Assembly: GCA_000990005.1 (NCBI GenBank)
Contig: LBPF01000001.1
Location: forward strand, 26,315-90,314
Direction: 5' to 3'
Length of the DNA stretch: 64,000 nt
DNA from: Candidatus Woesebacteria bacterium GW2011_GWB1_33_38
GTDB taxonomy: Bacteria; Patescibacteriota; Microgenomatia; UBA8517
A program made the position numbers and the translations under genes. This document shows, one piece after another, positions 16,185-17,318 of the stretch. The notes under the pieces were generated by a model. That model made no database searches and was not told the origin of the DNA. It saw nothing but the letters and a program-made list of their open reading frames with translations. How positions within the stretch are numbered: the stretch's first letter is position 1; the number at the start of each line of letters is the position of its first letter.

Positions 16185-16209
16185 ATAGATTTTTTAATTT
16201 ATTAATTAG

Positions 16210-16244
16210 AAAATCACTGCACGGGAAGGACAAACCATCAAATA
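16210..16244. repeat. Direct-repeat copy A of about 35 bp (AAAATCACTGCACGGGAAGGACAAACCATCAAATA)
   Basis: It matches copy B at 16764-16798 at about 30/35 positions. Confidence 0.45.
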
Positions 16245-16353
16245 AGTACTTTTCTGATATTAGACTTTACCTTTAGTCCTACCTAAACAGCAACTATACT
16301 TATAAAAAAGTACTAGGGAACAAAAATATCTTCAAAATTATGTTATTATTAAT

Positions 16354-16572
16354 TTGATGGAGTTAACTGCTGATCAATACAAAACAGTTTCTGAAATTTT
16401 AGGTAATATTTCCGTCGCCTGGTTTACTGCTGGAATTGTATCTCCATTTTTCTTCGAAAATACAGATTTAACCAACCTTGTGCTATACTTAATTTTAGGT
16501 ATTTCAATGTTTATATTTTTTGGAATATATTCAATATATTACGCGGGAAAAATTAGAAAGCGATTGATATGA
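16354..16572 (+). CDS. Small two-TM membrane protein (72 aa)
   Basis: It is hydrophobic with a basic C-terminus (KIRKRLI). Confidence 0.3.
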   Translation: MMELTADQYKTVSEILGNISVAWFTAGIVSPFFFENTDLTNLVLYLILGISMFIFFGIYSIYYAGKIRKRLI

Positions 16573-16664
16573 ATTTTGCAAATACATACTTATTAGCTGT
16601 TGTGATTAGTTCTGTAGTGCTTATTTTAACTGTCTCATTTATTGGTAGAAGAAACTATAAATAA
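16569..16664 (+). CDS. Tiny hydrophobic peptide (31 aa, single TM, basic C-terminus RRNYK)
   Basis: The ATG overlaps the stop of the upstream small ORF (ATGA). Its features resemble type I toxin-like peptides. It was not in the ORF track because it is under 60 aa. Confidence 0.2.
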   Translation: MNFANTYLLAVVISSVVLILTVSFIGRRNYK

Positions 16665-16665
16665 T

Positions 16666-16764
16666 ATGCCAAATGAAGCTGATCCAAGATTAATGTTATT
16701 GGCAGTAGTTTCAGTTCTGGTTACCTTTTTTGTTTTATATAAAACAATTAAATTCAAAAAATAA
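16666..16764 (+). CDS. Tiny hydrophobic peptide (32 aa, single TM, basic C-terminus KTIKFKK)
   Basis: It starts 2 nt after the previous peptide ORF and ends immediately before direct-repeat copy B. Confidence 0.2.
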   Translation: MPNEADPRLMLLAVVSVLVTFFVLYKTIKFKK

Positions 16765-16798
16765 AAAACACTGCACGGCAAGAACAAATCTTCAAATG
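16764..16798. repeat. Direct-repeat copy B of about 35 bp (AAAAACACTGCACGGCAAGAACAAATCTTCAAATG)
   Basis: See copy A. The two copies bracket about 520 bp that contain the three small peptide ORFs. Confidence 0.45.
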
Positions 16799-16895
16799 AA
16801 CCCCCCTTGACAACTCCCATTTTTTGGCAAAATGTTGGGAGTGGTAATCCTGTAATTTCAACTTTGAAAATTGAAATTCGAGGGTCATAAGTATA

Positions 16896-17318
16896 CTATT
16901 TTAGAAACTCAAGAATTTTTGATAGATATTGAGGAATTTGAATAATGGCAATTTTTATGGAATTAAAAACTAACTCATCATCAATTTTATCATAATTATG
17001 TGCTAGGGCATTTCTTAATCCCGCTGATTTTGCAATTTCTTCTGCAAATTCTTCGGTTATTATTTTATTCTTTGCAATATTGATAAACGAATTGTAATAA
17101 TCTGTTGGAATACTTTCATATTCTTCTTTTAAAATGTGATAATTTATATCAATTACTTGACCTGTTATTATCTCAAGAAGTCTCTCAATAATAAGTTTAA
17201 TTTCAGGATCATTTAAGTATTCATCTAAAGTTAAATCCTTATATTTTTTTAGTATGGCAAGATCTTCACTAACTAATTTTATTTTCCTGTTTATTAATTG
17301 GATATCAATTCTTGGCAT
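16896..17318 (-). CDS. HEPN-domain toxin (HepT/DUF86-like) of a HEPN-MNT toxin-antitoxin pair
   Basis: The protein is alpha-helical with a C-terminal Rx4-6H motif (RNALAHNY). It overlaps the upstream MNT gene by 14 nt. Confidence 0.6.
   Translation of the reverse strand: MPRIDIQLINRKIKLVSEDLAILKKYKDLTLDEYLNDPEIKLIIERLLEIITGQVIDINYHILKEEYESIPTDYYNSFINIAKNKIITEEFAEEIAKSAGLRNALAHNYDKIDDELVFNSIKIAIIQIPQYLSKILEFLK

Follow-up and report, generated by a model that had tools for sequence, protein, structure and literature searches.

What are three tiny open reading frames (ORFs), bracketed by a direct repeat, doing in a bacterium of the Candidate Phyla Radiation (CPR), whose members have tiny genomes and few recognized mobile elements? 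The question is raised by a stretch of 64,000 nucleotides (nt) from contig LBPF01000001.1 of Candidatus Woesebacteria bacterium GW2011_GWB1_33_38, referred to here as the window, in which an earlier note, made from the sequence alone, had proposed a type I toxin-like or bacteriocin-like peptide cassette, possibly a mobile mini-island inserted with duplication of a ~35-bp target. The analysis reported here leads to a different view of the peptides and to a similar view of the insertion. On balance, the segment at 16210–16797 is probably one copy of a self-contained, insertable membrane-peptide cassette, the repeats of which arose by target duplication. The cassette, ~0.45–0.5 kb in size, is made up of its own sigma-70-type promoter and three translationally coupled genes, and it represents a small-protein family not described before, whose insertion signature is unusual. 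Its parts are as follows.

16210–16243, plus strand: repeat copy c1, AAAATCACTGCACGGGAAGGACAAACCATCAAAT, which begins 26 nt past the stop of a 246-aa gene.
16244–16315: spacer between c1 and c3, which holds the inverted repeat AAGTACTTTT (16244–16253) / AAAAGTACT (16306–16314).
16302–16336, plus strand: degenerate repeat copy c3, ATAAAAAAGTACTAGGGAACAAAAATATCTTCAAA, immediately 5' of ORF1.
16341–16349, plus strand: putative extended −10 element TGtTATTAT, which ends 7 nt before the ORF1 ATG.
16357–16572 (alternative start 16354), plus strand: ORF1, 71 aa, a predicted two-helix membrane hairpin.
16569–16664, plus strand: ORF2, 31 aa, with a single transmembrane (TM) helix and a basic tail; its start and the stop of ORF1 overlap in ATGA.
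16666–16764, plus strand: ORF3, 32 aa, with a single TM helix and a basic tail; 1 nt separates it from the ORF2 stop.
16764–16797, plus strand: repeat copy c2, AAAAACACTGCACGGCAAGAACAAATCTTCAAAT, the first base of which is the last base of the ORF3 stop codon.

The ~35-bp direct repeat of the earlier note is real. Copies c1 and c2 are identical at 29 of 34 positions in an ungapped alignment, and they are the only matches in the 64 kb to a degenerate pattern allowing up to 3 mismatches (0 expected, 100 shuffles); an nhmmer profile likewise returned these two alone from the window. To them can be added the degenerate c3, whose alignment score with c2 is reached by 0 of 1000 shuffles and whose position matches that of the repeat copy in the related locus L006 (583–615 of L006). 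The alignment of c3 with c1 is not significant. The resulting array runs c1, 58 nt, c3, 20 nt, ORF1–3 and c2, with c3 overlapping the −35/spacer region of the cassette promoter. Copy c2 is ~88% identical to the one that precedes ORF1 in L006. The sequences following c1, c3, and c2 are mutually unrelated, and the repeat itself is not palindromic and folds weakly. A scan of a genome collection that does not hold the source genome gave four matches to the repeat pattern, in unrelated phyla and at about the number expected by chance.

That the cassette behaves as an insertable unit is best seen in its relatives. In a group of seven loci, the DNA is ~75–80% identical from about −100 to the ORF3 stop, and the flanks beyond are unrelated, with DksA, GatB, DnaG, CPSase, and HisE as the Pfam families beside five of the seven. 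Likewise, the copies at L042, in an intein, and L047, in an intergenic region, are 87% identical over 436 nt only, a span that begins 17 nt 5' of the ATG and closes 21 nt past the ORF3 stop. A common neighbor function was considered and dropped; the neighbors of related cassettes are heterogeneous housekeeping genes. The 3' edge is constant, lying 0–10 nt past the ORF3 stop. When the flanks of each locus were tested for direct repeats, four loci gave significant results (0 of 200 shuffles), namely the window (34 nt), L006 (18 nt), L038 (17 nt, or ~27 nt with one indel), and L039 (34 nt, 33/34 identical). Except for the motif common to the window and L006, these sequences differ from locus to locus, and the repeats are therefore taken to be derived from the host rather than carried by the element. 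A motif common to the different duplicated targets was also sought, and only a weak ACAC(C/T)GCA likeness between the window and L038 emerged, which is not relied on.

Two of these loci record how the insertion took place. In L038, the downstream copy is the end of a minus-strand gene (..GKIAVLK, stop), and the upstream copy is a relic of the same gene end (..GRKVAVLK, stop) that overlaps the ATG of the next gene; thus, the cassette entered between two genes overlapping by ATGA, with duplication of their junction. In L039 (1517–2844), the last 34–40 nt of trxB, stop codon included, occur three times, at ~2811–2850, 2311–2344, and 1517–1556, and these copies separate the cassette, a second inserted gene of 209 aa, and the original flank. 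The corresponding region of L057 and L060, whose TrxB proteins are 88–89% identical to that of L039, has one copy of the trxB end followed directly by the orthologous flank, which is the empty site. L039 and L057/L060 thus provide a direct comparison of filled and empty sites. The 209-aa gene, which belongs to no known family, is itself bracketed by a ~20-nt hairpin motif, GGGTT..CCAC.C.TAAGGT.GAA. Neither the sequence following c2 nor the first intein of L042 holds a detectable second cassette or remnant of one.

A further setting of the cassette is the reverse strand of other genes. At least five copies lie antisense inside giant ORFs, and at least four of them fill the endonuclease loop of a mini-intein. 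At L025, L032, L042, and L044–46, the cassette and its promoter are antisense within an uninterrupted ORF that runs past the ends of the fetched locus (552 to 2,732 aa visible, the ORF extending beyond these ends). The host frame has the features of a canonical intein, with a block B (TTGNHPYLV), a C-terminal ..VAHN/T and Pfam Intein_splicing matches at E values of 1e-17 to 1e-34, and the cassette sits exactly between block B and the C-terminal splicing half. The intein insertion of ~160 aa is the antisense reading of the cassette and makes a hydrophilic linker; in L044, for example (region 3744–4599), the insertion covers 3924–4398, and the cassette extends from a −35 box at ~3960 to the ORF3 stop at 4395. 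The third codon positions of the sense and antisense frames coincide in the nested copies. Across the cassette, 8 loci have an antisense frame with 0 stops, as against 1–12 in the others; L024 is nested in a giant ORF with no detectable intein, and L015 retains an intein relic. Because the sense ORFs are kept in lineages with a broken antisense frame, the small proteins are the conserved products, and in the nested copies both strands code.

Several observations on these antisense frames stand by themselves. A second intein in L042 (residues 438–712 of the minus-strand ORF, nt ~1604–2426) has a ~130-aa insertion in the same loop, and no cassette-like ORFs were found on its opposite strand. At L026 (1552–2007) and L038 (744–1244, minus strand), loci that are not visibly nested, the antisense frame is fully open for 151 and 166 aa, respectively, and either goes back to a nested ancestor or encodes a further antisense product. 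In L038, this frame is closed by the duplicated stop, the same that overlaps the start of the following gene.

The coordinates that the earlier note gave to three tandem tiny ORFs are right, and by their conservation ORF1–3 are genuine genes. The likely start of ORF1 is the ATG at 16357, giving the 71-aa form that is on record in public assemblies. Homologues of ORF1 are present on four other contigs at 65–72% identity, and in all four, homologues of ORF2 and ORF3 come next on that strand, their stop and start codons overlapping or abutting. Synonymous sites are saturated (synonymous divergence, dS, above 1), nonsynonymous divergence (dN) is 0.17–0.7, dN/dS is mostly 0.1–0.4, and the most variable codon positions are third positions, as under purifying selection. 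Each member has a recognizable signature, LSxxQxKxxSEILGNIxVAWFxxGxISPxF for the ORF1 family, (MIEW)NxxNTYLxAxxxSS for ORF2, and M..(A/F)(D/N)(P/I)(R/Y)L for ORF3. An ORF1 profile run against 1.8 billion protein representatives gave 117 matches, nearly all of 63–75 aa, and a metagenome scan gave 43 loci. In 32 distinct loci, all three ORFs are present and alignable, at ~69, 32, and 30 aa, and the stop/start overlaps are kept. There is one cassette per fetched locus and one in the 64-kb window. The organism names on record are those of Woese-, Roizman-, and Beckwithbacteria and of unclassified Patescibacteria, and going by these the cassette is limited to one group of the CPR, the Microgenomates. 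Searches with the three proteins gave no match in Pfam, NCBIfam, PHROGs, PADLOC, or PDB sequences, a scan of viral contigs with the ORF1 profile found no relative, and the literature searched held no description of this protein family or of antisense genes in inteins. In practical terms, the public annotation of the locus misses ORF2 and ORF3 and has instead a 61-aa minus-strand ORF at 16635–16820, which is spurious: it is not conserved, and the plus-strand peptides are.

What these proteins do can be approached from their architecture. The earlier note had seen in each peptide a single hydrophobic helix with a basic end. This holds for ORF2 and ORF3, in which ~20 hydrophobic residues in unbroken succession lead into a basic tail; it does not hold for ORF1, which has two hydrophobic helices and is modeled by AlphaFold2 as a helical hairpin (H5–31 and H38–70, mean predicted local distance difference test score 91.5). 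Foldseek searches of the PDB with this model returned generic helical hairpins only, at E values above 0.7. Given the translational coupling, the strictly conserved lengths, the positive-inside tails, the long-term purifying selection, and the conserved polar residues in or near the helices (E and N in helix 1 of ORF1; E-W-N..N-T-Y at the start of ORF2), we infer that the three proteins may form a small stoichiometric membrane complex. A useful and conserved membrane role, for instance as a small channel or an accessory subunit, is judged more likely than that of a poison.

A sigma-70-like promoter with at least 9 of 12 consensus matches is present in 24 of 33 loci, its −10 box ending 6–11 nt, mostly 7–8 nt, before the ORF1 start. 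The cassette mRNA is therefore probably leaderless or nearly so, and the same is presumed in the window from the analogous placement of its −10 element. The likely −35 hexamer of the L006 cassette promoter falls within the repeat motif. A search of the opposite strand in 29 loci revealed no sigma-70-like promoter at a conserved position, while the sense promoter was detected in 9 of the 29 at equal stringency; as the test looks for a sigma-70-like consensus, a non-consensus promoter would escape it. Rfam yielded nothing in the window at gathering thresholds, nothing in 16100–16950 at E values up to 10, and a chance snoRNA-like match only in three related loci.

The inverted repeat just upstream of the genes, which the earlier note had called long and thought able to fold into a structured small RNA, turns out to be modest. 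Its arms exist, at 9–10 bp, and the second lies at 16306–16314 rather than at 16304–16312. The segment folds no better than shuffled sequences (z = +0.3 on the plus strand and −1.2 on the minus strand), which leaves no case for a structured RNA, and the fold of the entire leader is not significant (z = −1.5). Pairing of the 3' part of c1 (CCATCAAAT) with the start-codon region (ATTTGATGG) appears in the minimum free energy fold of the window and is treated as chance because it is absent in L006. The spacer between c1 and c3 may be a small second insert between two repeat copies. At two other loci, elements upstream of the cassette were noted. In L009, a 127-nt element just 5' of the cassette (434–560; −52 kcal/mol, z ~ −8.5, either strand) has a 13-bp closing stem, GGGTACTTATTT/AAATAAGTACCC, and no Rfam match; it may be a miniature insert or an RNA of no Rfam family, and it has an AAGTAC end motif in common with the small inverted repeat of the window. 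In L007, two tandem terminator-like units of ~43 nt each (ATTAATGAGACTGTGGTTAATATCACAGTCTTTTTTTATGTAA) are found at 3530–3680.

Taken together, these data would fit the following history. A single short mRNA would yield the proteins at a fixed ratio; with the basic tails on the cytoplasmic side, they would enter the membrane and form a small hetero-oligomeric complex there, each set contributing four helices. Copies c1, c3, and c2 would be three copies of the host sequence at the insertion point, having arisen as the cassette, and probably also the 58-nt spacer between c1 and c3, inserted; the array of the window resembles in this respect the three-copy array of L039. L006 has the motif of the window both upstream of its cassette (583–615) and, in part, directly after ORF3, and the duplication would thus predate the split of the two lineages. 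Later, the repeat would have come under constraint, the old duplicated host sequence being used since for regulation. The cassette does not encode the enzyme that inserts it. As mechanisms, fill-in after a widely staggered cut or some form of copying can be named as speculation.

A number of points weigh against this history. For the window's own locus, insertion with target duplication stays a probable event, supported through the related loci, and no empty site was found there. Unlike the repeats of L038 and L039, c1 and c2 contain no host gene end. Flanking repeats are present in only 4 of ~30 loci, the 5' boundary is not constant (26 to 112 nt before the ATG), and there are neither terminal inverted repeats (at the ends in the window and, by reading, at those of L039 and L038) nor a transposase or integrase in or next to the cassette, which holds three small ORFs only. 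The cassette also stands in the same rml–sortase–TrmD neighborhood as that of L005 (sortase, CAP, RmlA ... TrmD, GT2), where the neighbors are 47–63% identical to those of the window and ORF1 is 65% identical. Synteny at such low protein identity shows that the cassette is ancient and stably inherited in this lineage; L005, moreover, has no flanking repeat. The repeat is ~88% identical between the window and L006 despite saturated synonymous sites, and it is therefore not a neutral scar and must be under constraint, which could be purely regulatory. All three observations speak against a recent island. The leaderless transcript, for its part, is read from hexamer matches in AT-rich DNA, and the membrane complex from sequence features, coupling, and conservation. 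Thus, of the two proposals of the earlier note on mobility, insertion duplicating a ~35-bp target is supported by the sharp edges of related cassettes, by the locus-specific repeats of four loci, the window among them, and by the empty sites corresponding to L039, and the mini-island survives as a discrete cassette that is ancient and syntenic with its relatives, not as a recent arrival.

It is tempting to go further and to see the trio as the cargo of an undescribed class of minimal mobile cassettes in CPR bacteria. Insertion machinery acting in trans would make a ~30–40 nt staggered cut, through a Cas1/casposase-like integrase or target-primed copying; recurrent insertion at a single site would build arrays with repeats between the inserts, antisense nesting would be tolerated or exploited, and the peptides would give a selective hold, by benefit or by addiction. 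This extension of the insertion reading is possible, and we put it forward only tentatively, as rather doubtful.

The main rival to insertion is a purely regulatory origin of the repeat. The trio would then be a fixed housekeeping operon encoding a core, immobile membrane complex of Microgenomates, and the 34-nt motif an operator or UP-like element for a local regulator, repeated before the cassette promoter and before the former promoter of the downstream rml genes. We regard this as unlikely, albeit the account to be taken most seriously among the rivals, since synteny of the cassette with rml genes is shared by the window, L005, and L006, its genes are single-copy and strongly conserved, and the motif is kept beyond neutral expectation between the window and L006. 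In addition, the L006 motif places TTCAAA 18 nt before a possible −10 box, and c2 and the partial downstream copy of L006 lie 9–10 nt upstream of TTGACA/TTGCAA hexamers. However, the locus-specific duplications of L038 and L039 and the filled/empty comparison are left unexplained, as are identical cassettes in unrelated flanks and intein nesting. Neither c1 nor c2 has a usable −10 box at 16–18 nt, for which reason they were also rejected as promoters, and the motif occurs nowhere else in the 64 kb. If instead c2 were what remains of a tandem duplication, with a head-to-tail second copy deleted or overwritten by the downstream HepT/MNT–DUF3800–major facilitator superfamily (MFS) block, one would understand the promoter-like TTGACA hexamer after c2, a likeness to L039, where the repeat stands at the cassette start and is followed by a G/C-rich run and TTGACA, and the nature of the right side, a low-GC variable block with a toxin–antitoxin (TA) pair. 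Such an origin is improbable: there is no ORF1-like coding trace after c2, the three repeat copies are followed by unrelated sequences, and the two-sided layout recurs in L006 with an intact downstream rml operon and no space for a lost copy.

The remaining rivals concern what the peptides are. In a type I TA-like addiction module, as suggested by the earlier note with Hok and Fst in mind, one or more peptide toxins would be kept in check by an RNA, antisense or structured, or, in nested copies, by the antisense transcript of the host gene. The small, hydrophobic, basic-tailed peptides would suit it, as would a ~0.5-kb module with its own promoter in many contexts, the adjoining TA pair, and the several copies antisense to host genes, and a toxin or addiction role is retained as a minor rival because it would fit the scattered, insertion-like distribution. 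Against this, there are three co-conserved coupled genes and not one, under strong purifying selection with high conservation across a whole bacterial group; the mRNA is apparently leaderless, without a long structured leader; 29 loci gave no antisense promoter at a conserved position, where the sense promoter is readily detected; and no significant fold and no Rfam, Pfam, or PADLOC match was obtained. As the promoter, fold, and Rfam results are negative, the two hallmarks of such modules that can be tested in sequence, the antisense RNA and the structured leader, are removed, and we consider a type I module very improbable. The bacteriocin-like alternative of the same note, in which the small cationic peptides would be secreted antimicrobials of a multi-peptide leaderless cluster, has in its favor the tandem ~30-aa peptides with lysine-rich ends and no signal or leader sequence, and it is the least credible of all. 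No ABC transporter, immunity, processing, or accessory genes lie within ~10 kb, the neighbors of related cassettes are unrelated housekeeping genes, no bacteriocin family was matched, and a ~20-residue hydrophobic stretch with a basic tail is typical of an integral, positive-inside membrane anchor.

The setting of the cassette in the window can be summarized in a few lines. The GC content is ~32% overall and 28% around the cassette, and the identical sequence is carried by many groundwater assemblies.

12615–13508: RmlA gene, first in the gene order around the cassette.
13505–15397: gene for an RmlB fusion protein, 5' of the 246-aa orphan gene.
15444–16184: 246-aa orphan gene, directly upstream of the cassette.
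16809–16883: gap zone with the TTGACA hexamer and then two hairpins, between the cassette and the convergent HepT gene.
16896–17691, minus strand: HepT/MNT TA pair, convergent with the cassette.
Beyond HepT/MNT, in order: DUF3800, MFS transporter, and 434-aa orphan genes.
After the 434-aa orphan: RmlC, RmlD, TrmD, and GT2–GtrA glycosyltransferase genes.

The gap zone folds modestly (z = −1.7 on the plus strand and −2.4 on the minus strand) and may be a terminator zone or a promoter remnant. No tRNA or tmRNA was found by a scan of the window, and hence no tRNA-type attachment site. The RmlB (dTDP-glucose 4,6-dehydratase) protein has a C-terminal fusion region of ~300 aa with no Pfam match, and the 246-aa orphan belongs to no Pfam, NCBIfam, PHROGs, or PADLOC family and has no homologue among the related loci. 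On the other side, the HepT-like RNase and MNT nucleotidyltransferase genes overlap by 4 codons and are followed by the DUF3800 gene (16896–18300 in all), this being the lowest-GC stretch of the window (28%). The block from HepT/MNT through DUF3800 and MFS to the 434-aa orphan splits rmlA/B from rmlC/D and is missing in the syntenic locus L005.

As a 0.5-kb unit of a promoter and three peptide genes conserved across Microgenomates, the cassette would be new in two respects: it would define an unannotated family of small membrane proteins under strong selection in a whole bacterial group, and it would show an insertion signature unlike any standard transposon, integron, or phage mechanism. Long host duplications, the lack of inverted ends and of a recombinase gene, and arrays at one site would be combined in it, and the cassette could sit between coupled genes, or antisense in an intein, without the host gene being destroyed. 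The antisense copies nested in inteins are, in addition, clean natural cases of two conserved frames on opposite strands.

Among known systems, the type I TA repeats of E. coli, such as the long direct repeats (LDR, ldr/rdl), hok/sok, and ibs/sib, offer one parallel. The LDR, hok, and ibs/sib repeats are roughly 500 bp in length. They resemble the cassette in being ~0.5-kb units with their own promoter that encode tiny, hydrophobic, basic-ended peptides at varied chromosomal sites. The cassette differs in its three coupled genes, one of them for a two-TM protein, in sequence conservation across the group, in having one copy per locus, and in having no detected antisense promoter, structured leader, or family match. 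Described type I toxin families, including Hok, Fst, Ldr, Ibs, TisB, and others, gave no match in Pfam, NCBIfam, PADLOC, or PHROGs. ORF2 and ORF3 are small hydrophobic peptides (under ~60 aa) in form only, and ORF1 is a two-TM protein of 71 aa.

Miniature inverted-repeat transposable elements, mobile insertion cassettes, and casposons are likewise discrete units with sharp ends, direct duplications of host sequence, and empty sites in relatives. In contrast to them, the cassette lacks terminal inverted repeats and a transposase, and it has a variable 5' edge and a constant 3' edge. Target-site duplications of ordinary transposons are usually 2–15 nt, and those of the cassette are longer, at 17–40 nt. 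They also exceed the median of casposon target-site duplications, which are 1–27 nt with a median of 15, terminal inverted repeats being always present in casposons (PMC4046053). Arrays produced by CRISPR spacer acquisition, by integrons, or by Xer recombination (dif/pdif) offer another parallel in that copies of ~30–40 nt separate inserts, as in c1–spacer–c3–cassette–c2 of the window and R–cassette–R–gene A–R of L039 (R, repeat). Here, however, the repeat is locus-specific and taken from the host (from the 3' end of trxB, from a gene junction, or from an intergenic motif); unlike attC and dif, it is not palindromic, and the inserts are of 0.06–0.75 kb with promoters. Cas1, IntI, and Xer genes were not seen nearby in the parts examined. 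An integron gene cassette in particular was rejected, there being no palindromic attC-like 3' site and the cassette having its own promoter.

Leaderless bacteriocins such as aureocin A70 and enterocin L50 also have tandem genes for ~30-aa cationic peptides without leaders; the cassette differs in having no export or immunity gene, in the integral-membrane character of its products, in its conserved two-TM partner, and in being a single-copy trio conserved across a bacterial group. Finally, homing endonuclease genes in inteins offer a parallel for the nested copies, given that at least four related cassettes occupy the same loop as endonuclease domains. The cassette at these sites nevertheless lies on the opposite strand, has its own promoter, and encodes membrane peptides rather than a nuclease, and the copy in the window is placed outside any intein, between its own repeats.

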